Of a stretch of DNA of 64,000 nt, positions 11,623-64,000 are shown piece by piece. The DNA is from Escherichia coli (lineage in GTDB: Bacteria; Pseudomonadota; Gammaproteobacteria; Enterobacterales; Enterobacteriaceae). A program made the position numbers and the translations under genes. The DNA is taken from assembly GCF_024298765.1 (NCBI RefSeq), contig NZ_CP101210.1, one strand, 5' to 3'. The notes beneath the pieces are model-generated. The model worked only from the letters and a program-made list of their open reading frames with translations. It had not been told where the DNA came from and searched no databases. Numbering within the stretch: the first letter of the stretch is position 1; each line of letters starts with the position of its first letter.

Positions 11623-11644
11623 TGTTACGTCCTGTTTTCAAAGG

Positions 11645-12913: not shown

Positions 12914-12932
12914 CCGCTCAATTCCTTTGCGC

Positions 12933-14009
<1,077 letters not shown>

Positions 14010-14440: not shown

Positions 14441-14624
14441 AAAAAAGCCCGCATCAGCGGGCTTTAATGTCATAGGGAGTCGCGACTCCGTTGCGTATCC
14501 TTTTTTGTCTCCTCACCGTCTGGTCGGTGTCCTGCTGAGACTTATAACTTCCTGTTTTTGTTGGTGTAGTCCTTACACCGTCCAATCATGATTGGTGGAG
14601 CTGGCGGGAGTTGAACCCGTGTCC
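14441..14624. repeat. Left att-associated direct repeat: displaced copy of the ssrA 3' end (~33 nt) plus ~150 bp of ssrA-downstream sequence
   Basis: ~90% identical by eye to 54238-54423; homology to ssrA stops at 14624, after which AT-rich prophage sequence begins. Confidence 0.7.
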
Positions 14625-16245: not shown

Positions 16246-16270
16246 AAGCCACTTAAGTGGCTTTTTTTGT
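16246..16270. terminator. Hairpin plus T-run between the convergent cargo operon and int
   Basis: aaagccacttaagtggcttttttt. Confidence 0.6.
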
Positions 16271-17425
16271 GATATTGCTGGTCGTATTACCGTCATATTC
16301 CTTTAAATATAAACCATAATGACGAAATAACATTTCCGGCCCTTTATGCCCCATTTGAGCTGCAAGCCAAAACAGGTTTGCTCCCCGGCTGATATGGCGG
16401 GTGGCGAATGTATGCCTAGTTTGATATGGATTTCTGTAACGAATACCTGCTTTTCGCAATGTTGGCACCCATGCTTTTTTCCTGATTGCATCAGCACTTG
16501 CCCAAGGCTTATTGGTCTTTGGATCTTCAAAGACAGTAGTATCCTTCATGAATGTAAATGGCTTCTGATTTATCAGCGCCAACATTGCCTCTTCTGTCAG
16601 TTCAACTTTCCGAGTACCTGCTTTTGTCTTTGTCCCTTTGATAACACCGACAACACTTGCGCTCTGGACATGGGCAGTTTTTCCAACAAAGTCGATATCA
16701 CGCCATCGAAGGGCACATAATTCAGAACTACGCAGGCCTGTATGTATAGCGAACCGGAACAGATTTTCCCATTGTTTGTTTCCGGCTGCTGCTAGTAATG
16801 CATCAACTTCTGCTGGTGATAGCGGATCAACTACGTAGCTGCTTTCTGCTTCTGACTTATCACTTTGGTAGCGCGAAGCTGTTACTAACGATACGGGGTT
16901 AATTTGAAGTACCCCATCGGTCACGGCTTCATCAAGTGCTGACCGCAGGAAAGATAACTGGTTGCGAATTGTTTTTAAGGTCGTTTTCTGATTTTGAATC
17001 CACGCTTTCAGGGTTGCTGGTGTTAATTCACTTGCAGGGCAAATGTGAAGTGAGGCTAACGCACTACGGCATTTTTTATAGCCACCAATCGTAGAGGGTG
17101 AAAGTTTTCTTGTTTCGCAGATTTCAAGATATTCGTCCAGGTACATCTTTACCGTTTTGCCTGCAGCAGCATTACCAAAAATTTTCAAACGAGCAGAACG
17201 GGGAAAATATTCTGCATAAATGAATGTTCCCCTTTCGATCTTATTATGGATTTCGCCGAGTGTACGCTCGGCGTATTTAATGTTCTTTGGTGTTACTTCC
17301 AGATTGGAAAGCGGCTCACGACATCTAACTCCTTTGTAGGTGAAAGTTATATTGATCGTTTCTCCCTGGCGGTGTTTCCTGATTGTTACGCCGCGCGGTA
17401 GTTTGAGCAGTTTTGTCTGGCCCAT
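16253..17425 (-). CDS. int: Phage integrase, tyrosine recombinase family
   Basis: 390-aa ORF with C-terminal catalytic region (...HTGLRSSELCALRWRDID...RHTFATRHISRGANLFWLAAQMGH...); adjacent to xis and the att region. Confidence 0.85.
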   Translation of the reverse strand: MGQTKLLKLPRGVTIRKHRQGETINITFTYKGVRCREPLSNLEVTPKNIKYAERTLGEIHNKIERGTFIYAEYFPRSARLKIFGNAAAGKTVKMYLDEYLEICETRKLSPSTIGGYKKCRSALASLHICPASELTPATLKAWIQNQKTTLKTIRNQLSFLRSALDEAVTDGVLQINPVSLVTASRYQSDKSEAESSYVVDPLSPAEVDALLAAAGNKQWENLFRFAIHTGLRSSELCALRWRDIDFVGKTAHVQSASVVGVIKGTKTKAGTRKVELTEEAMLALINQKPFTFMKDTTVFEDPKTNKPWASADAIRKKAWVPTLRKAGIRYRNPYQTRHTFATRHISRGANLFWLAAQMGHKGPEMLFRHYGLYLKEYDGNTTSNITKKAT

Positions 17426-19261: not shown

Positions 19262-20086
19262 TCAGGCGGTGAAAGTCCCAATAAAGGTTTCTACTTTGCT
19301 GTCCTTGAATTTCTCAACAAGCAGATCACGAAATTCGTTAGCCATATCTTCCTGCACCGCTTCCAGCTGAATAATGCGCAGAACCAGTACAGGACGATCG
19401 CCAGTGATAATGCTGAGGCGTAATTTAAACGGACGTTCTTTCAGACCTTCAAACGGAACGCATTTAAACTCAAATGCCACTGGCATAATGTCTTTGGTCT
19501 TCGCTTCGACAGACTCCATCAGGGAGCGTTTGCCGCTGAAGTCATTATCTTCAAAATCAGCAGTCTGGTTTGCTTCAATCGTGATTTTACGGACCGCCGC
19601 AGCCGCTTTTGTTGCCTGAATGGTGTCACCATTAGCATCAAAGCCCACAAGATAGTCGGCCCAGTCTTCGATCCATTCTGCCAGTGATTTCTGGGAGTTA
19701 CGCTCTCCATTAACAGACAACAGAGCAGAGAACGGTGCTGTCTTTTTCAGTTTGAGAGTGGCGGTGTTATCTGCGTGACCTGGTTCATCAATAGTACCCA
19801 GGTTAAGCACACTGACGGCACGCATATTATCAGCATCGATAAAGCAGCGGGTGCCTTCATCTGCAAGATCTTTAGAATAACGGGTAAAGTCATCAATGCT
19901 GGCAGTGGAAAGCGCACCACGGAAACGGAAGCGATTTAAATTAAATTTTTCCAGATCATGAATGCGGAAATTCTCAGGCAATGCCACAGCATCGGCACCA
20001 ATCTTACTGATAATTTCATTAACACCCTGAGCAGAAATAAGAGCATGGATTTGATTAATTGCGGTTGCGTCTAAGTTCTGAGACAT
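19262..20086 (-). CDS. YfdQ-like (DUF2303) prophage early protein
   Basis: 274-aa [24 protein letters not shown]...; recalled similarity to CPS-53 YfdQ. Confidence 0.6.
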
Positions 20087-20151
20087 AATAAGTCCTCACT
20101 ATATAAAGATATTCAGTGATGAGATAAATAATCAGTTAATTAAGAACGATA

Positions 20152-20514
20152 TTAATGACCTGCTGCGCGGAGTTTTCCGTCAGGCTCACCGGCAAGAGTC
20201 AGTAATTGTCCCTGGTCTTCCTGCAGAATAGTCAGGCGACCACCGCGATTGACATACATCGGCGTTTCGGTGGTGTCTTCTTCGGAAATTTTCCCACGGT
20301 TAGTCGGGCGAACATATGAGAGTTTGTGTTTGATTTTCACACGGTTCTCATCAAATGGTTCGATTTCCAGGTTGAGTGAGACCTTACCTTTGGTTTTCGT
20401 GTTCATCACACCGGAAGCGACTTCACTGAGAACTGCGCCGATTTTGGTTTCAAATACGCCGCCGTCCAGCTCCCCGATAAATGCCTGCACATCAGTACTG
20501 CGTTCGCTAGCCAT
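20152..20514 (-). CDS. YfdP-like prophage early protein (hypothetical)
   Basis: Likely start at MASERSTD, with GAGGAG 8 nt upstream on the coding strand; track ORF extends to 20700. Confidence 0.5.
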   Translation of the reverse strand: MASERSTDVQAFIGELDGGVFETKIGAVLSEVASGVMNTKTKGKVSLNLEIEPFDENRVKIKHKLSYVRPTNRGKISEEDTTETPMYVNRGGRLTILQEDQGQLLTLAGEPDGKLRAAGH

Positions 20515-20856
20515 TTTGCTGCTCCTCATCATATCGACCCTGCAAGGCCGATTAGTTTCTCCACAAAACAGAGAAGAACACCTGCGGTGGCAGCCGCCCG
20601 GATGGATTGGGTTATGAGCCCGTCGTCCGATGATGTTCTTCTCTGTTTTGTAAAAAGAGCGGTACCAGCCGGAAGCAAGTGTACAAACTGGTACCGCCAA
20701 AGCAGTGGCTGTTGTGGTGACCGGTGCTGATCTCCGGCTTGCGGTTATTTCAGACTCTCACGGGCGTTTAATTGCCCCGCCGAACAGCTCTTTTCCGCAA
20801 TAGCTGCAATGTCTTTCGCGCATCAGCCTGCGCATTCACCACAACTCTAAAAACAA

Positions 20857-20909
20857 ATGTAGGATATCCAACGTGTGGGTGTCAAGAGTTTATGTTGGTT
20901 ATCCTACAT
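20857..20909. promoter_or_regulatory. Left operator/promoter region (OL/PL-like): two copies of the repressor operator motif
   Basis: atgtaggatatccaac and gttggttatcctacat, the same motif found three times at OR. Confidence 0.55.
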
Positions 20910-20971
20910 AAAAAGATAGGCTCATAAAAAAACCGGGGATACCCCGGTTTTGCGATAGTGAGGAAGATGTG

Positions 20972-21625
20972 TCAAAAATCCATTATTACTTGTTTGACAA
21001 GACCAACTATTCTGCAGTTCTCACCGCATTCAATAGTTTTATAGTTAGGATTTAGTGGGACGAGATACCTGTTCGGCCAGTCCTCAACAAATTTTTTGAG
21101 TGTCGCTTCTTGCCCACCATTGATATGGGCAACAACGATTTTTCCGTTAATACACTCTGTATCAATAATATCTGGCTCTACGATAACGATAGAACCTTCT
21201 GGTATCGATGGTGAGCCGAGGGGATTGGTCATTGAATCACCACGGACCCGTAGTGCAAATGCCATTTCTGATACAAGGGCGGTAGTATAAACCCACTCTT
21301 CAGCATCTTCTTTCCTGACACCAGGCTCCGTCATTGTCCATGAACCCGCCTGAACCCACGAGATGAGGGGGACTTTTTTAACTGCGAATATTTCAGGTTT
21401 TAGATTTATCTTTGGTTCAGGCGAGCCTTTTCCGCTAACAAGCCACAGAGGATCGCATTTAAGTGCGTTGGCTAGGGCTTGAAGGTTGGCTCCATTTGGT
21501 TGGTAGTCGTCCTTTTCCCATCCAGTAACCGTGACACGGTTCACACCAGTCAAATCAGCCAGTGCTTGTTGTGTCAGGTTCAGTTCTTTTCGCCTTTGGC
21601 GAATACGATCACTCATGTTCATCAT
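20972..21625 (-). CDS. CI-like prophage repressor (N-terminal XRE HTH, C-terminal S24 LexA-like peptidase domain)
   Basis: 217-aa ORF; HTH (LTQQALADLTGVNRVTVTGWE) and S24 motifs (RVRGDSMTNP ... KKF); divergent from a cro-like gene. Confidence 0.8.
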   Translation of the reverse strand: MMNMSDRIRQRRKELNLTQQALADLTGVNRVTVTGWEKDDYQPNGANLQALANALKCDPLWLVSGKGSPEPKINLKPEIFAVKKVPLISWVQAGSWTMTEPGVRKEDAEEWVYTTALVSEMAFALRVRGDSMTNPLGSPSIPEGSIVIVEPDIIDTECINGKIVVAHINGGQEATLKKFVEDWPNRYLVPLNPNYKTIECGENCRIVGLVKQVIMDF

Positions 21626-21688
21626 GTAGGCAATCCTACCACATGCTCATGTAGGATTCTTGACATTGATATGTTGGATATCCTACAT
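21624..21688. promoter_or_regulatory. Right operator region (OR1-3-like) with divergent PRM/PR promoters
   Basis: Three operator copies (atgtaggcaatcctac, atgtaggattcttgac, gttggatatcctacat); ttgaca -35 at 21660-21665; cI ATG abuts the operator. Confidence 0.6.
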
Positions 21689-21720
21689 TTCTGCTTAACG
21701 TAATTTAACGGGAGACAGAA

Positions 21721-21918
21721 ATGCGGAAATCCGACGTGATTAATTATTTCGGCGGAGTTTGTAAAACCGCCGAAGCCCTAGGTATTAAGCATCCGTCTGT
21801 TTCAGAGTGGCCTGAGATTATTCCTGAAGGCCGAGCGTACCAGTTAGAAAAAATTACTAACGGGAAACTGAAAGTTGACGTGTCTTTATATCAAAAGACT
21901 AACAGTGCTGCGGCATAA
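21721..21918 (+). CDS. Cro-like small HTH regulator (YdaS/DicC-type)
   Basis: 65-aa ORF divergent from cI directly after OR. Confidence 0.65.
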   Translation: MRKSDVINYFGGVCKTAEALGIKHPSVSEWPEIIPEGRAYQLEKITNGKLKVDVSLYQKTNSAAA

Positions 21919-21945
21919 AAACACCACAGAAATGAGGAATTAACC

Positions 21946-22530
21946 GTGGGTAAAGAACCTGAATGGAAAGTTGATAAACAACCAGCATGGCTGGTGGCAG
22001 CAATACGAAGAACGATTGCTGATTTACCTCATGGCTATGAGGAAGCAGCAGAAATTCTTGGTTTGTATAAATCTGATGATATCACCCCAGCAAAAGATCA
22101 ATTGCATAACAGACTGCGTAGCGGTGGGGATCAAATTTTTCCACTTGAGTGGGCCATGGTTTTACAGGATGCCAGTGGTACCAGGCATGTAACAGATGCA
22201 ATAGCCCGTCGTAGTAATGGGGTGTTTGTGCCGCTGGTGGTCATTGATGACATTGACAATGGTGACATTAATCAGCGGCTGATGGAGTCAATAGAATGGA
22301 TTGGCAAGCATTCCCAGTACTTACGCAAGGCAACTGCTGATGGAGTTATTGACCAAGCTGAGCGTGAGCAAATCGAAGAGAACAGCTACCAAGTAATGGC
22401 GAAGTGGCAGGAGCATTTAACACTGTTATTTCGTGTTTTTTGTGCGCCGGAAAAGAGTAACGCCCGCGAGTGTGCAGCTCCGGGCGTCGTGGCGTCGATT
22501 GCTTCTGGTTGTGGAGAAACTAACGCATGA
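21946..22530 (+). CDS. YdaT-like (CII-position) prophage regulatory protein
   Basis: 194-aa ORF, GTG start with GAGG upstream; position after cro. Confidence 0.5.
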
Positions 22531-22865
22531 ACAGTTTAACAACACACTACCGTCGTTCGCAACTGATTGCGCTTCCTGTACCGGGTGGAAAAGCGAAGGT
22601 GGAGTATTGCTATGCAGTGAATGTACCAGGTGATAGGGAAATTGTAACCCACAGCTTTGCAGAGTGGGCTGTGGGTGATTTCAACCGGCAGAAGGAGACA
22701 GTCCTTTGCGACAAGTTAACCGCTGGTTCAAAGATCACTACGGAGTGCCCGTCAGAGTCATTCGTTGGGAGCCGGAAACACAACGGGTTATCTACCTCCG
22801 TGAAGGCTATGAACATGAATGCTTCAGTCCGCTCGAACAGTTTCGTCGTAAATTCAGGGAAATAG
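22527..22865 (+). CDS. Hypothetical protein (112 aa); may be the 5' part of a frameshifted gene
   Basis: ORF overlapping the 22706-22918 ORF in another frame. Confidence 0.3.
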
Positions 22866-22918
22866 AGGTCGGTCATGAGCCTGTTAATGACATCCCAGCC
22901 CATTGTGATAAATCGTGA
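22706..22918 (+). CDS. Hypothetical protein (70 aa); may be the 3' part of a frameshifted gene
   Basis: Overlaps the upstream ORF and the replication-gene start. Confidence 0.3.
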
Positions 22919-23867
22919 TCTTGCATGCCGTATTGGTCTGAATGAGGCAATTGTGTTGCAGCAGCTTCATTACTGGCTGAATGAAACGAATTCAGGCACT
23001 GAGCATGGCGGAATTCGCTGGGTTTATAACACGACAGAACAGTGGCTGGAGCAGTTTCCGTTCTGGTCAGAGTCCACTCTGAAACGCACATTTGCAAGCC
23101 TGAAATCACTTGGGGTTTTGCGTCGCGAGCAACTCAATAAATCGAAGCGTGACATGACCAACTTCTACACGATCAACTATGAAAGTGAGCTTTTAGAAGA
23201 GGTCAAAGTGAACGAATCCATCAGGTCAAAATGCACTTCTCCATCGGGTCAAAGTGACCTGATGGATGAGCGCAAAATGACACGATCCATTGGTTCAAAA
23301 CGACACGCTGTCATCGGGTCAAAATGGCCCAATGATCTTACAGAGAATACAACAGAGATTACTACAGAGAATAAAACCTCTTCTCGTCCGGACGCTTCGC
23401 AACCGGACACGCAGATGGCTGAACAGGATTTTTTAACTCGCCATCCTGATGCGGTTGTATTCAGCCCTAAAAAGCGCCAGTGGGGAACGCAGGATGATTT
23501 GACCTGCGCACAGTGGCTCTGGAAAAAAATCATCGCTCTGTACGAGCAGGCCGCCGAATGTGACGGCGAAGTGGTACGTCCTAAAGAACCGAACTGGACA
23601 GCCTGGGCAAACGAAATTCGCCTGATGTGTGTACAGGATGGGCGTACTCACAAACAAATCTGCGAGATGTACAGCCGCGTCAGCCGCGATCCGTTCTGGT
23701 GCCGTAACGTGCTCAGCCCGTCGAAGCTGCGGGAAAAATGGGATGAGCTTTCCCTGCGCTTATCGCCGTCCGTCAGCACGTACACAGAAAAACGCGAAGA
23801 TCCGTACTTCAAAGCCAGTTACGACAACGTGGACTACAGCCAGATCCCGGCAGGATTCAGGGGGTGA
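22875..23867 (+). CDS. Phage replication initiator (lambda O-like / replisome organiser) with embedded origin iterons
   Basis: 330-aa ORF with N-terminal DNA-binding-like region; iterons inside the coding sequence as in lambda O. Confidence 0.7.
   Translation: MSLLMTSQPIVINRDLACRIGLNEAIVLQQLHYWLNETNSGTEHGGIRWVYNTTEQWLEQFPFWSESTLKRTFASLKSLGVLRREQLNKSKRDMTNFYTINYESELLEEVKVNESIRSKCTSPSGQSDLMDERKMTRSIGSKRHAVIGSKWPNDLTENTTEITTENKTSSRPDASQPDTQMAEQDFLTRHPDAVVFSPKKRQWGTQDDLTCAQWLWKKIIALYEQAAECDGEVVRPKEPNWTAWANEIRLMCVQDGRTHKQICEMYSRVSRDPFWCRNVLSPSKLREKWDELSLRLSPSVSTYTEKREDPYFKASYDNVDYSQIPAGFRG
23199..23326. repeat. Origin-type iterons: five direct repeats of ~CATCRGGTCAAARTG inside the replication gene
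   Basis: gaggtcaaagtg, ccatcaggtcaaaatg, ccatcgggtcaaagtg, ccattggttcaaaacg, tcatcgggtcaaaatg, followed by an A/T-rich stretch. Confidence 0.7.
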
Positions 23868-23869
23868 TC

Positions 23870-23962
23870 ATGAGTCTTTTGAATGAAGTTCAGAAATTCA
23901 TTGAAGCCCATCCGGGGTGTACTTCCGGAGACATTGCGGATGCTTTTTACGTGGGGGCTTAA
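23870..23962 (+). CDS. Possible small coupled ORF (30 aa) between the replication gene and the methylase
   Basis: ATG overlaps the upstream stop; TAATG overlap with the methylase start; found by hand. Confidence 0.3.
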   Translation: MSLLNEVQKFIEAHPGCTSGDIADAFYVGA

Positions 23963-24615
23963 TGAGTAATAAATATTGTCAGGCGCTGGTGGAGCTGCGG
24001 AACAAACCATCCCATGAACTGAAGGAGGTGGGCGATCAGTGGCGCACGCCGGACAGCATTTTCTGGGGAATTAACACCTTGTTTGGCCCGTTTGTTCTGG
24101 ATCTGTTCACTGACGGTGATAACGCCAAATGTGCCGCGTATTACACGGCGGAAGACAACGCGCTGGCGCATGACTGGTCAGAACGCCTTGCGGAGCTTAA
24201 AGGTGCTGCCTTTGGCAATCCCCCATACAGTCGCGCCAGTCAGCATGAGGGGCAATACATCACCGGCATGCGTTACATCATGAAACATGCCAGTGCCATG
24301 CGTGATAAGGGCGGGCGCTATGTTTTCCTGATCAAAGCTGCCACCAGCGAAGTGTGGTGGCCGGAAGATGCGGACCATATTGCTTTTATTCGCGGGCGTA
24401 TTGGTTTTGAACTGCCTGCCTGGTTTATCCCGAAAGATGAGAAGCAGGTGCCGATAGGCGCTTTCTTCGCTGGTGCTATTGCTGTTTTTGACAAGACCTG
24501 GAAGGGACCGGCAATCAGCTACATCGGGCGCGATGAACTTGAGGCATGTGGTGAGGCCTTTCTGGCGCAGGTTCGCCAGCAGGCAGAAAAACTGGTCAGG
24601 GAGATGGTGGCATGA
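23962..24615 (+). CDS. Phage-type DNA N6-adenine methyltransferase (Dam-like, orphan)
   Basis: Start at MSNKYCQALVEL (track ORF starts at 23917); contains the FGNPPY motif, a D/N-PP-Y/F-type catalytic signature. Confidence 0.7.
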   Translation: MSNKYCQALVELRNKPSHELKEVGDQWRTPDSIFWGINTLFGPFVLDLFTDGDNAKCAAYYTAEDNALAHDWSERLAELKGAAFGNPPYSRASQHEGQYITGMRYIMKHASAMRDKGGRYVFLIKAATSEVWWPEDADHIAFIRGRIGFELPAWFIPKDEKQVPIGAFFAGAIAVFDKTWKGPAISYIGRDELEACGEAFLAQVRQQAEKLVREMVA

Positions 24616-51478: not shown

Positions 51479-52912
51479 ATGTCTGAATTTGAAGTGTTGG
51501 CACAGCATCTGCTGAAGGAAGCCGAGGCGGAAGAAAAGCTGCGACAGGAAAATGATAAAAAGCTTATCGAGAAAGTGCTGGAAATCTATGATCAGAAGTA
51601 TGTGGCTGAATTACTGAGAAAAGTCGGAAAAAATGAGTGGAGCCGTGAAACCATTAACCGCTGGATTAATGGCAAGTGTTTACCAAAATCGTTGACTTCA
51701 GTAGAAGAGTCTCTTCTGCGTAAGATGCTACCAGAACCACCTGCAAACCATCCGGAATATGCTTTCCGCTTCATTGACTTATTTGCTGGAATTGGAGGGA
51801 TACGGAAAGGTTTTGAGGCCATTGGAGGCCAGTGTGTTTTTACCAGTGAATGGAATAAAGATGCTGTGCGTACATACAAGGCCAACTGGTTTAACGATGA
51901 ACAGGTGCATAAATTCAATCTCGATATTCGGGAAGTCACGCTGAGTGATAAAACCGATGTATTGGAAACGGATGCTTATGCATATATTGATGAGCATGTG
52001 CCGGATCATGATGTGCTTCTTGCGGGGTTCCCGTGCCAGCCATTTAGCCTTGCTGGTGTTAGTAAGAAAAACTCACTTGGTCGTGCGCATGGTTTTGAAT
52101 GTGAAGCACAAGGAACACTTTTTTTTGACGTGGCACGTATTATACGAGCAAAAAAACCGGCAATTTTTGTGCTGGAAAATGTCAAAAATCTGAAGAGCCA
52201 TGATAAGGGTAAAACTTTCAAAGTCATTATGGAGACCCTTGACGAGCTGGGCTACGAAGTTGCCGATGCTGCAGAAATGGGAAAAAACGATCCAAAGATT
52301 ATCGATGGGAAGCATTTTTTGCCTCAGCATCGTGAACGCATTGTTCTGGTCGGATTTAGACGAGATCTGAATATTCACAAGGGGTTTACCTTGCGTGATA
52401 TCAGTCGTTTTTATCCGGAACACCGCCCATCATTTGGTGAATTGCTGGAGCCTGTAGTCGACAGTAAATATATACTTACGCCAAAACTATGGGAGTACCT
52501 TTATAACTACGCCAAAAAGCATGCAGCCAAGGGGAATGGTTTTGGCTTTGGGTTGGTCAATCCTGAGAATAAGGAAAGCATTGCACGCACACTTTCTGCC
52601 AGATATCACAAAGACGGATCAGAAATTCTTATTGATCGTGGTTGGGATATGGCAACGGGAGAGGCTGACTTTATGAATGAGAGTAATCAGGCTCGTCGAC
52701 CACGCAGGCTGACTCCCCGAGAGTGCGCACGCCTTATGGGATTTGAAAAACCTGGAGGGAAACCATTCCGTATTCCGGTTTCAGATACTCAGTCATATCG
52801 GCAGTTCGGTAACTCAGTTGTGGTGCCAGTATTTGAAGCTGTTGCCAGACTTCTGGAACCCTATATCCTCAAAGCTGTTTCTGCTGATGCTGGTAAGACT
52901 GGGCAGCCTTGA
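51479..52912 (+). CDS. DNA cytosine-5 methyltransferase, Dcm/M.EcoRII family (predicted CCWGG)
   Basis: [12 protein letters not shown] (motif I), [10 protein letters not shown] (PCQ, motif IV), ENV (motif VI), QFGNSV (motif X); collinear with recalled Dcm; alternative start at 51437. Confidence 0.85.
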
Positions 52913-52946
52913 GAACATCTCCCGGCCTTTTAAGCCGGGAGTCAGC

Positions 52947-54161
52947 CTATGATAGTTCAGCGTAAAGCTCTATCAGCTCAGTAATGAATGCTCCGAGCGT
53001 TATTAATTCTTCTCTAACTGCTTCTGGGTATTTTTTATGTAAAGTTGATGGTACAACGAGTCTGACACCCGCATCTTTCATTTCTCGGTATTGTGCTGAA
53101 GAAACACCTTCTTGCAGTGTAAATAAATGTACCTGATGGATTTTATCTGCTTCATTCAGTATCTGACGCCAGCGATCTTTGCAGGTGGTCTTTACTGCCA
53201 GCATACGTAAGTTTTCTACAGGAAATTCAACGTTATGATATGCCTCTGCTGAAGGAAACAGGAAATCTGGTTTTTTATTACCTTCAGTAACTGCCTGAGT
53301 GGAGAAATGCCGTAGTCCGTGCTCGATAAAAAGCTTCTCTAGGTGAAGTTCAAGTGATTTGCCTGCCCTTGATTTACGTCGATTACTGACAGAGTTGGCT
53401 AATGCAATAAACTCATCTACAGAATCGAATCCTTTCTTAATAATATCAAGAACATGTAATTCCTCGACGAGTAGAAAAATATCATACTCGACACGCCGAC
53501 GGTCAATCAGTTGCTCATCTGGATCCTTGGAGTTTTTAGCATAATGGCCAGCAGCATATTGAATAATTTCGTTTCCAGAAGGAAAACGCTTCTTCCAGTC
53601 TTCAGGAATAACATATTTATGATTTACTGGAGTTTGCTGAAGAGACAATCCGCCCAAAATTTGTCCGGCAGGGCCGGAAATTAGGGTTCCAGGTATGATT
53701 TCGCCAATAGCAGACTCGATGATATCCTCTTCATCGGGATTGACGCAGACCCATATATCTACCTCGGAACAGTCAGTGTTCTGTTCGTTTAACCTGAAAG
53801 CAAGAATTGTGAGGGCTCCTGTATTTTCAGGGTTCTGTAATGGACTTCCTCTCCCCCAGCGCGTAATTCTTTTTTCGTTTCGGGTCTTACCAAAATAACG
53901 GTTGTTGTAATAAATTGCGCGTGCTTGGGTATCAGGGCAATCATGGGATGATACATGCGCAGTAAGGAAGACTGAAGGGTTCAGTTCGCGAGTATGATTG
54001 ATAGATGGAAAAAGCTTTTCAACGATATTTGAGGGGATATAAAGTCCGACCTGATGGCCACCTGTTGCGCCTGTGTCGTTTGCAGAAAGGCGTTTGATGT
54101 AGATAAAGTAATTCCCGCTTGCGATATCAAGCAGCCAGTTATGAAAAACCGACATATACAT
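52947..54161 (-). CDS. Type IIE restriction endonuclease, EcoRII family
   Basis: 404-aa ORF (MY)MSVFHNWLLDIASGNYFIYIKRLSANDTGATGGHQVGLYIP..., matching my recollection of EcoRII; convergent with the methyltransferase. Confidence 0.75.
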   Translation of the reverse strand: MYMSVFHNWLLDIASGNYFIYIKRLSANDTGATGGHQVGLYIPSNIVEKLFPSINHTRELNPSVFLTAHVSSHDCPDTQARAIYYNNRYFGKTRNEKRITRWGRGSPLQNPENTGALTILAFRLNEQNTDCSEVDIWVCVNPDEEDIIESAIGEIIPGTLISGPAGQILGGLSLQQTPVNHKYVIPEDWKKRFPSGNEIIQYAAGHYAKNSKDPDEQLIDRRRVEYDIFLLVEELHVLDIIKKGFDSVDEFIALANSVSNRRKSRAGKSLELHLEKLFIEHGLRHFSTQAVTEGNKKPDFLFPSAEAYHNVEFPVENLRMLAVKTTCKDRWRQILNEADKIHQVHLFTLQEGVSSAQYREMKDAGVRLVVPSTLHKKYPEAVREELITLGAFITELIELYAELS

Positions 54162-54237
54162 CCCTTTGTTAACATACAGTCAGGGTTAACATTTTTCCAT
54201 AGTTATAGATAAGCGGCTAGGAACTTAAGGGAAAAAC

Positions 54238-54423
54238 AAAAAGCCCGCATAAGCGGGCTTTTGTGTCACTCGAGAGCCGCGGCTCCTTTGCGTATCCTTT
54301 TTTATCTCCTCACCGTCTGGTCGGTGTCCTGCTGAGACTGCTAACTTCCTGTTTTTGTTGGTGTTGTCCTTACACCGTCCAATCATGATTGGTGGAGCTG
54401 GCGGGAGTTGAACCCGCGTCCGA
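54238..54423. repeat. Right att-associated direct repeat (ssrA 3' end plus phage-borne downstream arm with terminator)
   Basis: ~90% identical by eye to 14441-14624; hairpin plus T-run (read on the minus strand) at 54238-54262. Confidence 0.7.
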
Positions 54424-54752
54424 AATTCCTACATCCTCGGTACTACATGCTTAGTCAGTCTTTACATTCGCTTGCCAGCTGCGGACGGACACGCCACTAA
54501 CAAACTAGCCTGATTAAGTTTTAACGCTTCAACCCCAGGCAGGGCTTCCACGCGATCTCTTTTGGGTTTGACCTCTCTTGATCCCCGTCCTAAGAGCGGA
54601 GGCTAGGGAGAGAGGGCTCTAAGCAGGTTATTAAGCTGCTAAAGCGTAGTTTTCGTCGTTTGCGACTATTTTTTGCGGCTTTTTACGAGGCCAACCGCCC
54701 CTCGGCATGCACCTTGGGTTTCGCAAATCCCGTCGAATCCAGAATCAGCCCC
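54390..54752 (-). ncRNA. ssrA: tmRNA (SsrA)
   Basis: Reverse complement matches the recalled E. coli tmRNA from GGGGCTGATTCTGGATTCGACGGG... to ...GGTTCAACTCCCGCCAGCTCCACCA. Confidence 0.95.
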
Positions 54753-54966
54753 AATGTGTAACGGTAAGTATACCAGATTCATGAGTGCCATGACCAGCCT
54801 CAATGGCGTTATCGTTAAAGATTTAGCACCCATGTAGCCTGATTTTTATTCGATTAAGCAATGGGATGGCAACATTTGGGTCGGATGTGATAGCCAATAA
54901 GATGTGCATTCGCGCCGCCGGAGAGGGAGGCGCGGTGAGGAGCGGATCAATAATTGCAGTGCAGGT

Positions 54967-55449
54967 TTAACGGTGGGCGTTTTTCATGATACGCGCTTTA
55001 TCCACCTGCCATTCGCGTTCTTTGATATCTGAACGTTTATCATGCTGTTTCTTACCTTTGGCGACGCCGATTTTCACTTTGCACCAGGCATTTTTCCAGT
55101 ACAGGGAGAGCGCCACTACGGTATAGCCTTCTCGATTGACGCGACCGTACAATGAGTCCAGTTCGCGCTGGTTGAGAAGTAACTTGCGGGTACGGGTAGG
55201 ATCGCACACCACATGCGTGGAGGCCACAGCCATTGGCGTGATGTTAGCGCCAAACAGAAATGCCTCTCCGTCACGCAGAAGGACGTAGCTGTCGCTGATA
55301 TTGGCTTTTCCTGCACGCAGGGATTTAACCTCCCAGCCTTGCAGGGCAAGTCCCGCCTCGAACTCTTCTTCGATAAAGTATTCGTGCCGGGCGCGCTTGT
55401 TAAGCGCGATGGTCGCTGAACCAGGTTTATGTGCTTTTTTCTTCGTCAT
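54967..55449 (-). CDS. smpB: SsrA-binding protein SmpB
   Basis: 160-aa [31 protein letters not shown]... Confidence 0.9.
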
Positions 55450-55580
55450 AAGCGTCGTGAATCATCGGTAATCTGAAATCGAAAACACCCCATATCAATC
55501 CTGCGGGGGACAAGGCTCTATCTTAGCATGAACCCGATGTTACCCAGCGCCGGGATAGCGTTTTTTTTACAGCAGGATAA

Positions 55581-56057
55581 ATGATATTATTTGTTGGATT
55601 TTTGTTGATGGAAATTGTTATGCCTCAGATTAGCCGGACCGCACTGGTACCCTACAGCGCGGAGCAAATGTATCAGTTAGTGAATGACGTTCAGTCTTAT
55701 CCTCAGTTTTTGCCGGGTTGTACCGGAAGTCGGATTCTGGAGTCCACTCCTGGGCAGATGACTGCGGCGGTAGATGTCTCTAAGGCTGGGATCAGCAAAA
55801 CGTTTACTACCCGCAACCAGTTGACCAGTAACCAAAGTATTCTTATGAATCTGGTGGATGGGCCGTTCAAGAAATTGATCGGTGGATGGAAGTTTACGCC
55901 GCTGAGTCAGGAGGCGTGCCGTATCGAGTTTCATCTCGATTTTGAGTTTACCAATAAGTTGATTGAACTCGCCTTTGGCCGCGTGTTTAAAGAACTGGCG
56001 GCTAATATGGTCCAGGCTTTTACGGTTCGTGCGAAAGAGGTTTACAGTGCCAGGTAA
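55581..56057 (+). CDS. ratA: RatA (YfjG), SRPBCC/polyketide-cyclase-like ribosome-association toxin
   Basis: Synteny and size; internal Met at 55620 (MPQISRT) may be the true start. Confidence 0.8.
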
Positions 56058-56337
56058 AATTGCCGTTGAGGTGGCTTATGCGCTACCTGAGAAGCAGTAC
56101 CTGCAGCGTGTGACGCTGCAGGAGGGTGCGACGGTTGAAGAAGCTATTCGCGCCAGTGGCTTGCTGGAATTGCGTACCGATATCGATTTAACTAAAAACA
56201 AAGTCGGCATTTATAGCCGTCCGGCAAAACTGAGCGATAGTGTGCATGATGGCGATCGGGTGGAGATTTATCGCCCTCTCATTGCCGATCCGAAAGAGCT
56301 GCGCAGGCAACGAGCAGAAAAATCAGCGAATAAATAA
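56047..56337 (+). CDS. ratB: RatB (YfjF), MoaD/ThiS-like small protein
   Basis: Overlaps the ratA 3' end; probable GTG start at 56047 (VPGKIAVEV...). Confidence 0.7.
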
Positions 56338-56345
56338 CAGACAGA

Positions 56346-56373
56346 AAAAAGGTGCTCATTGAGCACCTTTTTT
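56346..56373. terminator. Bidirectional terminator between ratB and bamE
   Basis: aaaaaggtgctcattgagcaccttttttaa. Confidence 0.7.
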
Positions 56374-56398
56374 AACGTCTTTGAGAGCAACTTTATGA

Positions 56399-56740
56399 TT
56401 AGTTACCACTCAGCGCAGGTTTATTATCAATATTGGTCAACACCCCGCTACTATTAAAGGTCAGCGTCAGCGTTTGCTGCGTTACACCTTCATGACCTGG
56501 TTGCTGGCGGAAGACATAGAACCAGGTATTCGTACCAAATGGATCGGACATCAGCGGTGTACCCAATGCGTACGCAACTTGTTGTTGCGTCATGCCAACG
56601 CGTATTTTGGATACGTCGTTAGCGGTCAGATAATTCCCCTGGTTGATGTCAGGACGGTAAACCACTCGCTCCAGAGTGGAACAGCCTGCGGTCAACATCA
56701 ATAGTACTGCTGCTGCAGCAGTCAGCGTTTTACAGCGCAT
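56399..56740 (-). CDS. bamE: Outer-membrane assembly lipoprotein BamE (SmpA)
   Basis: 113-aa ORF with lipobox LTAGC. Confidence 0.9.
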
Positions 56741-56888
56741 AGTGATTTGATTCCTTTTCGGGCCCGAGCAGTACGTGGCTCATCTGTAATATGCCGATGA
56801 TAATAGACCTTTCATCACTTTAAAACCTTTTGCTTTCCGGTCTTACGGCGTTTTGCTGTTTACTCTGACCGTGAAGCAGGAAAAAAGT

Positions 56889-58550
56889 TTACGCCGCAAG
56901 CAGTTCTTTCGCATTCGCCAGTGTGTTACGTGTGACTTCACTGCCCCCAAGCAGGCGCGCCAGCTCTTGTAACCGCGCTTTTTTATCCAGGGATTGCATG
57001 TGTGTTTCTGTCATCGCACCATCGGTTTCTTTGCTGACAAAATAGTGTTGATGACCACATCCCGCGACTTGTGGCAGGTGGGTAACACACATCACCTGAG
57101 TTGATTCGCCAAGTTGACGCAGCAGTTTGCCGACAACTGCCGCTGTTGGACCGCTAATCCCTACATCCACTTCATCAAAAATCAGTGCCGGGGTTTCCAT
57201 TTTACGCGCCGTGATGACCTGAATTGCCAATGCGATGCGTGACAATTCACCACCGGATGCGACTTTGGCAATAGGCTGCATTGGCTGACCTGGGTTGGTG
57301 GTTACCCGAAACTCAATACGATCGGCACCGTCAGCGCCCAGGTGATGCTCGTCAAATTTAACATCGATCGTAAACTGCCCATGCGGCATTGAGAGCGCAT
57401 GCATACTGTCGGTGATCAGCAGTGCAAGTTCTTCTGCATACTGCTGGCGTTGCTGGTGTAATGCGCGCGCGGTTTCCAGTGCCTGCTGATGATGTTTCGT
57501 TACCGCCAGCGCGAGCGTTTCTTGTGAGTCGGCCTGATCGTCCAGTTGCTGCTGTTCTTCCAGTAGCGACTGGTAATACTGTGGCAATGCCTCAGGGCTG
57601 ACGTGATGTTTACGTGCCAGCGAAATCTGTTTTGAGATGCGCTGTTCAAGTTCAAACAGTCGGTTGGGATCGAGATCCAGACGATCGCAGTAGTGGCGCA
57701 GTTCATCGCTGGCTTCAGCAATCTGGATGGTAGCTTCTTCCAGCATATCAAGTACGCCGGACAGTTTGCTGTCCATGCCAATCAATTCGCTCACCAGTTG
57801 TTTAGCCGTGTAAAGCTGACTTTGCAGGTTTGCGTCTTCACCGTCGGCCATTACTGCCAATGCATTCTGGCTGGTAGTCAGCAATTGACCGCTGTTCGCC
57901 AGACGTTTGTACTCTTCGTCGATTTGCTCAAACTCTCCGGGCTGCGGATTAAATTCGTTAAGTTCTTTTAATTGGTATTGCAGCAGTTCCGCACGGGCGG
58001 CGCGTTCCTGACTTAACTGTTGATGATGCGCGAGGTCACGGCAGCTTTGATGCCACAACTGATAACGTGCGGTCATTTCCTGGAGCAGAGAGGTTTCATT
58101 GGCATAGCCATCAAGCAGGAATTTTTGGTGCTCGGGTTTGGTGAGTAACTGATGGGCGTGCTGACCATGGATCTGAATCAGCAACTGGCCCAGTTCGCGA
58201 AGTTGTGACAGAGGAACAGCTGTACCGTTGATAAAACCTCGTGAGCGACCATCGCTACTGATTACGCGACGAAGCAAACATTCATGACCGTCTTCAAGCT
58301 GGTTTTCTTCCAGCCAGCGCAGGGCCGCTGGCGTATCTTTCAGAGAAAAACGGGCGCACAGGTCGGCACGAGCAGCGCCGGTACGCACCATGTCGGCTTC
58401 AGCGCGACCACCGAGACAAAGGCCGAGGGCATCTATTGCAATAGATTTACCCGCGCCGGTCTCGCCAGTTATTACGGTCATGCCGCTATGAAAATCAATC
58501 TCAAGCTCACGAACGATAGCAAAGTTGCTGATGGTCAGTTGTGCCAACAT
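56889..58550 (-). CDS. recN: DNA repair protein RecN (SMC-like ATPase)
   Basis: 553-aa [45 protein letters not shown]... with Walker A. Confidence 0.95.
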
Positions 58551-58576
58551 AGTTGTTTTCCTGTATGAAAAACCAT

Positions 58577-58619
58577 TACTGTTATTGTGTACAGTATAAA
58601 CTGGTTTTATATACAGTAA
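58577..58619 (-). promoter_or_regulatory. Two LexA SOS boxes in the recN promoter
   Basis: tactgttattgtgtacagta and aactggttttatatacagta: CTG-N10-CAG palindromes just upstream of the recN start. Confidence 0.8.
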
Positions 58620-58635
58620 AGAGGCTGGCGTAAAA

Positions 58636-59514
58636 TTAGAATAATTTTTTTGACCAGCCGAGCTTGGTGCTTAATGTATTGAAATAACTGTAATCTTTCG
58701 GATGAATCAGATTCAGATGGTAATCACAGCGACGAATCAGGACATCTTCACCTTCCTGAATCGGCAGTGCTATCTGGCTGTCGCAACTGATTTCCAGGTC
58801 GTTACGGCGATGCGAAAAACGCAGACGGATCGTGCTGCTGCTGTTTATCACCAGTGGTCGTGCTGACAACGTATGCGGGAACATGGGCACCAGGGTAATC
58901 GCATCCAGAGAGGGGGTCAGAATAGGACCGCCCGCAGAGAGGGAATAGGCGGTGGAGCCTGTTGGCGTCGAAATAATCAGTCCATCGGAACGCTGAGAAA
59001 ACGCAAAGATCTCGTCGATATACACTTCGAACTCAATCATATGCGCCACTTTGCCAGGATGAAGTACCACTTCGTTAATCGCGGTGCTGATGCGTTTCTG
59101 GCAATCTTGCTGACAAACTTGCGCTTCCAGCAAAAAACGTTTCTCGCTGATGTAGTGGCCTTCCAGCACATCGGCTAATTGTTGCTGGGCGTTATCGGGG
59201 TCAAGGTCAGTCAGGAAACCCAGGTTGCCACGGTTGATTCCAATAACTTTAATATCGTAACGGGCGAGTGTGCGCGCCGCGCCCAGCATATTACCGTCGC
59301 CACCAACGACTACCGCGAGATCAGCCAGTTGCCCAATCTCCGCGAGCGTGCCAGTCTTCACATTCTTCAGTTGCAGTTCGTGAGCGATTTGCTGCTCAAC
59401 GATGACCTCGTAACCTTTTGTGCACAGCCAGCGGTAGAGCATTTCATGTGTTGTCAGTGCAGTGGGGTGCCGTGGGTGTCCCACAATGCCAATACACTTG
59501 AAATGATTATTCAT
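58636..59514 (-). CDS. nadK: NAD kinase NadK
   Basis: 292-aa ORF with GGDG motif ([14 protein letters not shown]). Confidence 0.9.
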
Positions 59515-59561
59515 TTTTCCGAGGTCCTTGTTGCGAAGATTGATGACAATGTGAGTGCTTC

Positions 59562-59590
59562 CCTTGAAACCCTGAAACTGATCCCCATAA
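59562..59590 (+). promoter_or_regulatory. Sigma-32 heat-shock promoter of grpE
   Basis: CTTGAAA at 59562-59568, 13-nt spacer, CCCCATAAT at 59582-59590. Confidence 0.7.
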
Positions 59591-59603
59591 TAAGCGAAGT
59601 TAG

Positions 59604-60230
<627 letters not shown>

Positions 60231-60249
60231 TTTCTGTTTTCGTAATAAT

Positions 60250-60283
60250 TCACGGCCCTGCATGCGAATGCAGGGCCGTTTTC
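60250..60283. terminator. Bidirectional terminator between grpE and yfjD
   Basis: cacggccctgcatgcgaatgcagggccgttttcg. Confidence 0.7.
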
Positions 60284-60284
60284 G

Positions 60285-61547
60285 TTACTCCGCCACACTC
60301 TCGCGCAGCGGTTTTACAGGAAAAACTTTTACCTGCTTAATCATATTGTCCTGTACGTCGAGAATATCGATATCGTACTCGCCAATACGCACGCGGGTGC
60401 CTGCGACAGGGATCTCTTCCAGTGCCTCAAGAATGACGCCATTAACCGTGCGGGCATCATCTTCCGGTAGATGCCAGTTAAAGGCTTTGTTGATTTCTCG
60501 CACGTTGGCGGTGCCATCGATAATCACCGAACCGTCGTTTTGCGGCGTGACCTCTTCGGCAAGTGTTGGCGACATCGAGGTAGTGAAATCGCCGACAATC
60601 TCTTCCAGAATATCTTCAACCGTCACCAGCCCCTGAATGTCTCCATATTCGTTGACGACCAGGCCGACTTTCTTTTTGTTGCGCTGAAACTTGACCAGCT
60701 GTGTGCTGAGCGGCGTACCCTCCGGGACAAAATAGATCTCGTCCGCGGCGCGTAGCATGGTTTCTTTGGTGAACTCTTTTTTCTCCGACATGAGTCGCCA
60801 GGCTTCACGCACACGCAGCATACTGATGGCGTCGTCCAGCGAATCACGGTAGAGCACGATGCGCCCGTGAGGTGAGTGGGAGAGTTGGCGCAGAATCGAT
60901 TTCCAGTCATCGTTGATATCAATACCGATAATTTCACTTCGCGGCACCATGATGTCATCGACGGTCATCTTTTCCAGATCGAGCACCGACAGCAGCATAT
61001 CCTGATTGCGACGGGAAATTTGTGAGCGTGATTCGTGCACGATAGTACGCAACTCTTCTTTGCTCAAAGAGCCGCTAACCACGATATCGGTTTTGATGCC
61101 CATCATGCGCATTAACATGCGGGTAATAGCATTCAGCAACCAGACCAGCGGCATCATCAAAATTTGCAGCGGAGCCAGTAAAAAACTACTCGGATAAGCG
61201 ACTTTTTCCGGGTACAGCGCGGCAATGGTTTTCGGCAATACCTCAGCAAAAACCAGCACGACAAAAGTCAGCACACCAGTCGCAATTGCCACGCCCGCAT
61301 CGCCGTACAAACGCATCCCAACAATAGTGCCGAGCGCGGAGGCAAGAATATTGACCAGGTTATTGCCGATTAACACCAGGCTTATCAGGCGGTCTGGCTT
61401 ACGCAGCAATTTTTCGACGCGTTTGGCCGAGCGATTACCCTGTTTCGCCATATGTCGAAGACGATAGCGGTTGAGAGTCATCATTCCGGTTTCGGACCCG
61501 GAAAAATAGGCTGAAATGACCACCATGATGATCAGAATAATGATCAA
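60285..61547 (-). CDS. yfjD: YfjD, CorC/HlyC-family (CNNM/DUF21 + CBS) inner-membrane transporter-like protein
   Basis: 420-aa ORF with N-terminal TM domain; synteny. Confidence 0.85.
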   Translation of the reverse strand: MIIILIIMVVISAYFSGSETGMMTLNRYRLRHMAKQGNRSAKRVEKLLRKPDRLISLVLIGNNLVNILASALGTIVGMRLYGDAGVAIATGVLTFVVLVFAEVLPKTIAALYPEKVAYPSSFLLAPLQILMMPLVWLLNAITRMLMRMMGIKTDIVVSGSLSKEELRTIVHESRSQISRRNQDMLLSVLDLEKMTVDDIMVPRSEIIGIDINDDWKSILRQLSHSPHGRIVLYRDSLDDAISMLRVREAWRLMSEKKEFTKETMLRAADEIYFVPEGTPLSTQLVKFQRNKKKVGLVVNEYGDIQGLVTVEDILEEIVGDFTTSMSPTLAEEVTPQNDGSVIIDGTANVREINKAFNWHLPEDDARTVNGVILEALEEIPVAGTRVRIGEYDIDILDVQDNMIKQVKVFPVKPLRESVAE

Positions 61548-61591
61548 CGTAGTAGTAGAAATGTGTTCCAGGGGAAACTCCTTTTCTGGGT

Positions 61592-62458
61592 TTAGCTGAT
61601 TAACTGCTGAAAAATTCGGCTGCCGAAGTAGGCCAGTGTCAGAATGACTGCACCCGCAACGTTAAACCAGACGACGCGGCGTCCACGCCATCCTTCATGA
61701 TAATGTCCCCACAGCAGCACAATATAGACAAACCACGCCACGATAGAGAGCACGGCCTTGTCGATATTTTCCATGCTAAATAAGTTGTGCATGTAGAACA
61801 GGCCAGTGCAAAGAGTGAGCGTTAGCAGCACCACGCCAATCTGCGTGATATGGAACATTTTACGCTCGATACTCATCAATGGCGGCATTTCCTGGTTAAA
61901 TGCCAGCTTCTTGTTCTTCAGTTGGTAATCAATCCACGCCAGTTGCAGCGCGTACAGGGCAGCGATAATTAGCGTGGCATAGGAAAAAAGCGATAAGCCA
62001 ATGTGCACCAGCATCCCCGGCGTTGCTTCCAGATGGGTGATGTATTCATTGGGCATGAAGGTCGCCAGCGCCAGGTTGATAAGCGCAAAGGCATAGACAA
62101 TGGGTAGCAACAACCAGCCACGATTGCGAGAAGCCACAATGGTCATTACCGTACAGATCATCAAACTGACCAATGAACCAACGTTCAGCAGGCTGAGGTT
62201 TTGTCCGCTATCACCGTCGGGCAGGATGCGGGCTTCCAGAGCGATTGCGTGGCAGACCAGCGCAATGACCGCAGAAATAATAGCCATGCGCCGCCAGCCG
62301 CCGTTTTTTTGCAGCAGACCGGGAACAATCAGCGCAAGACTGACGGAGTAGGCGACAAGCGCGAGCAGAGCAAAAACGGGCATAGTAATGTCGACAGTTT
62401 GAGCAATAAGAAAGAGAAGCAGTATAGCGTCAGGTGAACGCTGCTCCAACCGTTGCAT
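61592..62458 (-). CDS. ypjD: YpjD, inner-membrane protein (cytochrome c assembly-like family)
   Basis: Polytopic membrane ORF between yfjD and ffh; true start may be an internal Met. Confidence 0.8.
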   Translation of the reverse strand: MQRLEQRSPDAILLLFLIAQTVDITMPVFALLALVAYSVSLALIVPGLLQKNGGWRRMAIISAVIALVCHAIALEARILPDGDSGQNLSLLNVGSLVSLMICTVMTIVASRNRGWLLLPIVYAFALINLALATFMPNEYITHLEATPGMLVHIGLSLFSYATLIIAALYALQLAWIDYQLKNKKLAFNQEMPPLMSIERKMFHITQIGVVLLTLTLCTGLFYMHNLFSMENIDKAVLSIVAWFVYIVLLWGHYHEGWRGRRVVWFNVAGAVILTLAYFGSRIFQQLIS

Positions 62459-62549
62459 AACAACAAAGACGCCTTCATGTTATACTGCGGCAAAATACTG
62501 ATGATGTGTCGCGATTGCGGCCAACCGTTTCCACCCCAGGCGAGAGACA

Positions 62550-63911
62550 ATGTTTGATAATTTAACCGATCGTTTGTCGCGCACGCTGCGCAATATCAGT
62601 GGCCGTGGACGCCTCACTGAAGACAACGTAAAAGATACGCTGCGCGAAGTGCGCATGGCGCTGCTGGAGGCGGACGTCGCTCTGCCGGTAGTGCGTGAGT
62701 TTATCAATCGCGTAAAAGAGAAAGCGGTTGGTCATGAAGTTAATAAGAGCCTGACGCCGGGGCAGGAGTTCGTCAAAATCGTCCGTAACGAACTGGTTGC
62801 GGCGATGGGCGAAGAGAACCAGACCCTGAACCTGGCTGCGCAACCGCCTGCGGTCGTGCTGATGGCGGGCCTGCAAGGTGCCGGTAAAACAACCAGCGTT
62901 GGTAAACTCGGTAAGTTCCTGCGCGAGAAGCACAAGAAGAAAGTGCTGGTGGTTTCTGCCGACGTTTATCGCCCGGCGGCAATCAAACAGCTTGAGACGT
63001 TGGCAGAGCAGGTGGGCGTTGATTTCTTCCCTTCTGATGTTGGTCAGAAGCCGGTAGATATCGTTAACGCGGCGCTGAAAGAAGCCAAACTGAAATTCTA
63101 CGACGTGCTGCTGGTGGATACCGCTGGTCGTCTGCACGTTGACGAAGCGATGATGGACGAGATCAAACAAGTCCATGCGTCGATTAACCCGGTTGAAACC
63201 CTATTTGTGGTTGACGCCATGACCGGTCAGGATGCGGCCAATACGGCAAAAGCATTCAATGAAGCGTTACCGCTTACCGGCGTAGTGTTGACCAAAGTGG
63301 ACGGCGATGCCCGCGGCGGTGCGGCGCTCTCTATTCGTCACATCACTGGCAAACCGATCAAGTTCCTCGGTGTTGGCGAGAAAACTGAGGCGCTGGAGCC
63401 GTTCCATCCGGACCGCATCGCGTCGCGTATTCTCGGCATGGGCGACGTACTGTCACTGATCGAAGATATCGAAAGCAAAGTTGACCGCGCGCAGGCAGAG
63501 AAATTAGCCAGCAAGTTAAAAAAAGGCGACGGCTTCGATCTCAACGACTTCCTTGAGCAACTGCGCCAGATGAAAAATATGGGCGGCATGGCCAGCTTGA
63601 TGGGCAAACTGCCGGGCATGGGGCAGATCCCGGATAACGTCAAGTCGCAGATGGACGATAAAGTGCTGGTGCGTATGGAAGCCATCATCAACTCGATGAC
63701 GATGAAAGAGCGCGCTAAGCCAGAAATCATCAAAGGTTCGCGTAAACGCCGTATCGCTGCCGGTTGCGGTATGCAGGTGCAGGACGTTAACCGTCTTCTG
63801 AAACAGTTCGACGACATGCAGCGCATGATGAAGAAAATGAAGAAGGGCGGGATGGCGAAGATGATGAGAAGCATGAAGGGTATGATGCCGCCGGGATTTC
63901 CTGGTCGCTAA
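62550..63911 (+). CDS. ffh: Signal recognition particle protein Ffh
   Basis: 453-aa ORF with GTPase motifs (GLQGAGKTT, DTAGR, TKVDGD) and Met-rich C-terminal M domain. Confidence 0.95.
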   Translation: MFDNLTDRLSRTLRNISGRGRLTEDNVKDTLREVRMALLEADVALPVVREFINRVKEKAVGHEVNKSLTPGQEFVKIVRNELVAAMGEENQTLNLAAQPPAVVLMAGLQGAGKTTSVGKLGKFLREKHKKKVLVVSADVYRPAAIKQLETLAEQVGVDFFPSDVGQKPVDIVNAALKEAKLKFYDVLLVDTAGRLHVDEAMMDEIKQVHASINPVETLFVVDAMTGQDAANTAKAFNEALPLTGVVLTKVDGDARGGAALSIRHITGKPIKFLGVGEKTEALEPFHPDRIASRILGMGDVLSLIEDIESKVDRAQAEKLASKLKKGDGFDLNDFLEQLRQMKNMGGMASLMGKLPGMGQIPDNVKSQMDDKVLVRMEAIINSMTMKERAKPEIIKGSRKRRIAAGCGMQVQDVNRLLKQFDDMQRMMKKMKKGGMAKMMRSMKGMMPPGFPGR

Positions 63912-64000
63912 TCGGCCTGGCTTGTTTGCCATTTTGGCACCGGGGTGTGCTCGTCATCCTCACGTATTGCGTGTACGCTCCGGTGACTGCGCGCACTCCG

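Follow-up and report, generated by a model that had tools for sequence, protein, structure and literature searches.

A 64-kb stretch of Escherichia coli DNA (the window) carries a prophage at ssrA and, on the right of it, an interval (58577–59590) with sequences at both ends that resemble known stress-regulatory signals: LexA boxes before recN and a σ32 promoter before grpE. This raises the questions of whether these sequences are the genuine control elements of recN and grpE or chance matches, and whether the chromosome on this side of the prophage was left intact. Our analysis indicates that the interval is almost certainly ordinary E. coli core chromosome, in which two independently regulated stress promoters at the ends enclose the housekeeping gene nadK. 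Of 5426 complete E. coli genomes, 5425 carry the region, which is part of the core genome. The preliminary description had presented the recN and grpE signals as known biology, and this was borne out: both sites aligned with the upstream regions of known promoters in K-12, with 0 differences in the recN boxes and 151 of 151 identical positions at grpE. The signals are already known biology, and no new biology comes from the interval. We take the interval as an anchor, which identifies the window as E. coli core chromosome with the order grpE-nadK-recN-bamE-yfjF-ratA-smpB-ssrA. The features on which the analysis rests are collected in Table 1.

Table 1. Positions and supporting evidence for features in and around the interval 58577–59590.
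Feature	Position	Strand	Evidence and remarks
Prophage att core, left copy, 51 bp	14569–14619		Repeat search
Prophage, ~39.7 kb	about 14620–54365		Between the 51-bp core copies
LexA-like site CACTGTTTAAATATCCAGAT	51395–51414		Score 19.5, second in window
Prophage att core, right copy, 51 bp	54366–54416		Repeat search; overlaps last 27 nt of ssrA
ssrA (tmRNA)	54390–54752	minus	ARAGORN and Rfam, 295.8 bits, full length, intact
recN, 553 aa, LexA-operator-controlled	56889–58550	minus	ORF list; NCBIfam equivalog NF008121, 1067.7 bits, residues 1–553/553; recN annotation in matching genomes
nadK–recN spacer, TTTACTGTATATAAAACCAGTTTATACTGTACACAATAACAGTAATGGTTTTTCATACAGGAAAACAACTATG		recN strand	
LexA box C, TAATGGTTTTTCATACAGGA, weak	58578–58559	minus	Score 12.4, rank 4; expected per random 64 kb: 0.39
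LexA box B, TACTGTACACAATAACAGTA	58596–58577	minus	Score 17.5, rank 3; expected per random 64 kb: 0.03
LexA box A, TACTGTATATAAAACCAGTT	58618–58599	minus	Score 25.4, rank 1; expected per random 64 kb: 0
recN promoter hexamers, σ70-type, TTTACT-16 nt-TATACT	58620–58593	minus	Consensus scan, 9/12 matches; putative assignment
Hairpin at nadK 3' end spanning stop codon, then UCUUU	58659–58623	minus	RNA fold; just before recN −35
nadK (yfjB), NAD kinase, 292 aa	58636–59514	minus	Pfam NAD_kinase and NAD_kinase_C; NCBIfam equivalog NF002893, 567 bits, residues 1–292/292; nadK annotation
grpE σ32 promoter: CTTGAAA (59563–59569), 13 nt, CCCCATAA (59583–59590)	59563–59590	plus	46 nt upstream of grpE ATG
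grpE, 197 aa	59637–60230	plus	Pfam GrpE; NCBIfam equivalog NF007655, 433 bits, residues 1–197/197
Terminator-like hairpin 3' of grpE, 12-bp stem, 8 G-C pairs	60252–60279	plus	Terminator scan

Most of the interval (879 of 1014 bases) is the coding sequence of nadK, which the preliminary description had left out. nadK and grpE are divergent, with a 122-bp spacer between them, and on the minus strand of this spacer no convincing σ70 match was found as a promoter for nadK. At the other end of the gene, RNA folding of 58670–58545 gave −32.4 kcal/mol (z = −4.9), to which the palindromic LexA boxes contribute part. The terminator scan did not call the hairpin at the nadK end and found no strong terminator between nadK and recN; the hairpin may act as a weak terminator that limits read-through into recN.

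The LexA operator of recN

In Gammaproteobacteria, the LexA consensus is TACTG(TA)5CAGTA (PMC6590174). A search of the window with the full consensus, TACTGTATATATATACAGTA, allowing up to three mismatches, returned no match, as real LexA boxes are too variable in the spacer; we therefore used a position weight matrix built from 16 published non-recN sites (PMC3009722 Table 4). CTG-N10-CAG alone was rejected as a search pattern because it was too loose, with 29 matches. Both strands of the window were scanned with the matrix, and chance rates were taken from 200 random 64-kb sequences. The preliminary description had named two canonical LexA boxes: A and B are indeed present at that end of the interval, but a third, weak box (C), which sits just left of the interval start at 58577, had been missed, and the core of A is not strictly canonical. 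Each of the three is a 20-bp palindrome around the core CTGT-N8-ACAG, exact in B, with one departure in A (CTGT-N8-CCAG) and weak in C; despite its departure, box A had the highest matrix score. Apart from box B, the window contains no exact CTGT-N8-ACAG. On its own, the match in box B is insignificant, as 0.55 are expected per window by chance and 41 of 100 shuffled sequences contained at least one, and such numbers would favour reading the recN and grpE motifs as chance matches with no regulatory role. Against this, the three recN sites, at ranks 1, 3 and 4 of the matrix scan, cluster on the promoter with a box-to-box phasing of 22 and 18 bp and are identical to the characterized K-12 operator.

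The position of the boxes fits repression of recN. The distances from box ends to the recN ATG are 48 nt for A, 26 nt for B and 8 nt for C. Box A overlaps both the −35 hexamer and the promoter spacer. Downstream of it, box B reaches over the −10 hexamer and the probable start of transcription, and box C over the recN 5' leader; the last 4 nt of box C form the Shine-Dalgarno sequence AGGA. The operator overlaps the promoter of the repressed gene, a promoter assigned by consensus, and transcription of recN probably starts near 58586 on the minus strand. The promoter of K-12 recN and the three SOS boxes on it were reportedly characterized by Rostas et al. in 1987 and Fernandez de Henestrosa et al. 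in 2000 (as cited in PMC10714372 and PMC8072944). Three SOS boxes are given for E. coli recN in published work (PMC10714372), the 20-mer of box A is printed for recN, which is UV-induced (PMC3009722 Table 4), and ciprofloxacin induction data exist for recN (PMC11002266). By analogy with the K-12 literature, and with identical box sequences, recN in the window would be LexA-dependent. With LexA dimers bound at A and B, and probably at C, promoter and leader would be occluded, RNA polymerase blocked and recN kept silent; upon DNA damage, RecA filaments would bring about LexA self-cleavage, so that the boxes are vacated and recN is strongly induced.

Comparison with K-12 MG1655 showed no functional difference at this promoter. 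Boxes A, B and C had 0 differences and agreed in sequence, order, spacing and distance to the ATG, and across the 85-bp nadK–recN spacer we found a single difference, A/G at 58554, which is a common polymorphism 4 nt before the ATG and outside all boxes. Among ~5425 complete E. coli genomes, the spacer was identical in 1752 and differed by one base in 3674. In Salmonella enterica, the recN operator likewise consists of three boxes, whose distances to the ATG are 8, 26 and 48 nt (PMC8072944), although the heterology indices given there come from a Salmonella matrix and are not directly comparable with our window scores (PMC8072944).

We then searched 100,044 species, each represented by one genome (298 Gb in total), for the tandem pattern TACTGT-N9-CAG-N4-TACTGT-N9-CAG, for which we estimate ~9 chance matches, given 18 fixed bases in 298 Gb. 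The pattern occurred at 120 loci or more. A RecN homologue starts immediately downstream in 109 of the 120 matches listed, in Gammaproteobacteria, which again speaks against chance, and among the matches listed the tandem boxes stand before recN from Escherichia to Vibrio and Shewanella. The exact register of the window (with 28 nt separating the box B CAG from the ATG) was kept at 49 loci among the matches listed, in Escherichia, Citrobacter, Enterobacter, Serratia, Yersinia, Photorhabdus, Plesiomonas and Vibrio, with RecN proteins 54–98% identical. At these 49 loci, the half-sites of A and B were invariant and the spacers drifted. The operator is, in other words, conserved upstream of orthologous genes. 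We also observed that the adjacency of nadK and recN, with grpE divergent, is kept in Enterobacterales and Vibrionaceae among the matches listed; in Shewanella, tandem LexA boxes still precede recN without this arrangement.

Whether all three boxes are operators is less clear for C than for A and B. We consider it unlikely that only A and B are true LexA operators and that box C is a look-alike conserved for the sake of the ribosome-binding site, although several observations point that way. The score of box C (12.4) lies below those of all 16 training sites (13.8–28.6), and chance alone would give 0.39 sites this good per 64 kb. Across genera, the right half ATACAGGA is kept but overlaps the ribosome-binding site, with the Shine-Dalgarno sequence inside the retained ACAGGA, and the left half is variable; as the conserved half overlaps the Shine-Dalgarno sequence, conservation of box C is not proof of LexA binding. 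The FIMO scan of Salmonella also missed box C, which the authors added by hand (PMC8072944). Nonetheless, published work counts three boxes (PMC10714372, PMC8072944), the ATACAG before AGGA is conserved more than a Shine-Dalgarno sequence requires, and the Mangrovibacter box C is a perfect CTGT-N8-ACAG with a score of 13.2. Box C also abuts box B, and LexA could bind the two cooperatively. Overall, we favour a three-box operator with C as its weak member.

The heat-shock promoter of grpE

The preliminary description had also placed a σ32 promoter upstream of grpE, and this was confirmed by CTTGAAA-N13-CCCCAT, with a −10 element, CCCCATAA, that is off the strict pattern. Published σ32 consensus sequences read CTTGAAA[11-15]CCCCATnT (PMC6699477) and TNtCNCcCTTGAA / CCCCATtTa (PMC12077118). 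A strict search for CTTGAAA-N12-16-CCCCATNT gave no match in the window. As the last base of the grpE −10 element, CCCCATAA, is A, strict CCCCATNT fails, and the pattern was relaxed to CCCCAT; CTTGAAA-N11-16-CCCCAT then had a single match in the window (59563–59588), with 0.02 expected. The two elements lie within the 11–15 nt of the consensus, the final T of CCCCATnT being A, and the extended −35 element TGCTTCCCTTGAA agrees with TNtCNCcCTTGAA at 9 of 11 specified positions (consensus from PMC12077118). A literature search for the literal grpE promoter string found no match.

The promoter is conserved at its position upstream of a heat-shock gene. The nadK–grpE spacer and both gene starts are the stretch of 151 positions identical to K-12, where the promoter has the same CTTGAAA, 13-nt spacer and CCCCAT, with no difference between the strains. 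In 5423 of 5425 E. coli genomes, the nadK–grpE spacer was at least 99% identical. To look beyond the species, we used those tandem-box loci listed that had enough sequence upstream of grpE, which gave 72 loci. TTGAA(A/T)-N14-CCCCAT was present, at fixed spacing and within diverged spacer sequence, at 65 of these 72 loci of other genera among the matches listed, and an alignment of 46 distinct nadK–grpE spacers showed conservation mainly in three blocks: CCTTGAA, ATCCCCATAATAAGC and the ribosome-binding site. From Escherichia to Vibrio, neither the tandem recN operator nor the pair of grpE hexamers has shifted in register. With the low chance expectation and the conserved fixed spacing at grpE added to the evidence from recN, we give virtually no weight to the notion of chance motifs, which conservation and position already refute.

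Given the identical sequence, the σ32 dependence of grpE, which in K-12 belongs to the σ32 regulon, can be carried over by analogy from the K-12 literature. RNA polymerase with σ32 would read CTTGAAA/CCCCAT and start ~40 nt upstream of the grpE ATG, probably near 59597 on the plus strand. Unfolded proteins would titrate DnaK/DnaJ/GrpE and let σ32 accumulate, and the resulting rise in grpE transcription would close a negative feedback loop. The grpE leader showed no significant RNA structure (z = −0.16).

Wade et al. in 2006 (cited in PMC3836757) reportedly described an overlap between σ32 and σ70 in promoter recognition in E. coli. It is possible, although we think it rather improbable, that the grpE promoter is also used by σ70 for basal expression, with σ32 adding the heat-inducible component. 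TTGAAA-16 nt-CATAAT (59564–59591) has a σ70 score of 10/12, the best in 56300–60400, and the σ70 scan found no other good promoter upstream of grpE; such use could supply the basal GrpE needed at all temperatures. The 16-nt spacer, however, falls short of the 17 nt that are optimal for σ70, σ70 has no use for the conserved CCCC run, and PgrpE, a σ32-dependent reporter promoter, is described simply as such (PMC12730382). Conservation of the AATAA that follows CCCCAT is close to that of the CCCC, with the first four bases of AATAA kept in 67–71 of 74 sequences and the fifth in 62 of 74. As CATAAT is as conserved as CCCC, conservation cannot separate σ32 from σ70 use. CATAAT at the grpE promoter is kept from Escherichia to Vibrio, at a strength like that of the CCCC run. 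Control by σ32 remains our preferred reading of this promoter.

The right flank and the ssrA prophage

The motifs had previously been offered as confirmation of the chromosomal context and of a right flank undisturbed by the prophage. The flank is undisturbed, but it is collinearity, and not the presence of motifs, that shows this. Window positions 54389–64000 aligned to K-12 at 98.2% identity with no gaps, and 54238–64000 were 99.87% identical to a prophage-free strain (strain 104), in which window positions 10403–14624 (gabD-lhgO-glaH) are joined directly to 54238–64000. The gene order ssrA-smpB-ratA-yfjF-bamE-recN-nadK-grpE-yfjD-ypjD-ffh is preserved. Collinearity with both K-12 and the prophage-free strain thus establishes that the flank was not disturbed, and the neighbouring stress promoters were left untouched by the 39.7-kb prophage at ssrA. 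To call the interval next to the prophage is loose, as the recN operator and the att core are 4.1 kb apart, with ssrA, smpB, ratA, yfjF, bamE and recN between them.

The prophage itself is bounded by repeats that contain the tmRNA 3' end, with an integrase and structural genes between them. A 184-bp direct repeat with 92% identity flanks it (14442–14624 and 54238–54421), and what follows the ssrA 3' end, to the left of the right core, is a phage-borne copy. Besides the tmRNA 3' end, the phage carries ~130 bp with homology to the host DNA downstream of ssrA. An Rfam search of the window found nothing besides tmRNA. Prophage genes include a tyrosine integrase (16253–17425), an S24 CI repressor, terminase, tail sheath and tape measure, and the prophage is an SfV-like/lambdoid mosaic. 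The ORF at 52947–54161 was rejected as an integrase: its Pfam match is an EcoRII-type endonuclease, and the integrase gene lies at the opposite end of the prophage. CP4-57 of K-12 uses the same ssrA target and the same starting place after ssrA. The prophage of the window differs from CP4-57 as a 39.7-kb SfV-like/lambdoid mosaic, with its integrase at the far left end and an EcoRII-type restriction-modification module beside ssrA.

Two further features of the prophage were observed. Its repressor (20972–21625, minus strand) is CI-like and combines an HTH with an S24 peptidase domain, so the prophage is probably induced by RecA-stimulated self-cleavage, the signal that derepresses recN. Separately, 20-nt inverted repeats at 47749–47768 and 49606–49625 (95% complementary) bound a 1.8-kb segment in which tail-fibre C-terminal and tail-fibre-assembly genes lie in opposite orientations, and a Pin/Gin-type serine invertase gene (49651–50241) adjoins it. 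This segment is a classic invertible host-range switch.

The second-ranking site of the matrix scan, whose score is within the E. coli operator range, lies at the prophage end, upstream of an EcoRII-type cytosine methylase gene (context 50299–54161) that is preceded by a GIY-YIG gene and followed by the EcoRII-type endonuclease gene on the minus strand. Copies on IncN plasmids retain the CTG-N10-CAG frame of the site. The frame also occurs in a 69%-identical homologue, where the imperfect half-site is on the other side (CTGG..ACAG vs CTGT..CCAG), and this box marks the point at which the restriction-modification modules become homologous. Judged from sequence, control of the methylase of this mobile restriction-modification system by host LexA seems doubtful, and a literature search for a link between EcoRII and LexA found no statement of one. 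More probably, the conserved block serves the methylase gene itself, as an autoregulatory operator or as its promoter, a reading suggested by the finding that M.EcoRII represses its own gene (PMC12707154). In E. coli DP051, positions 20001–24151 are 100% identical to window positions 50250–54400. This 4.1-kb block, which there forms the end of a defective prophage beside tRNA-Thr, contains the GIY-YIG gene, the methylase, the endonuclease and an ssrA-like att fragment, suggesting that the module moves between prophages by recombination.
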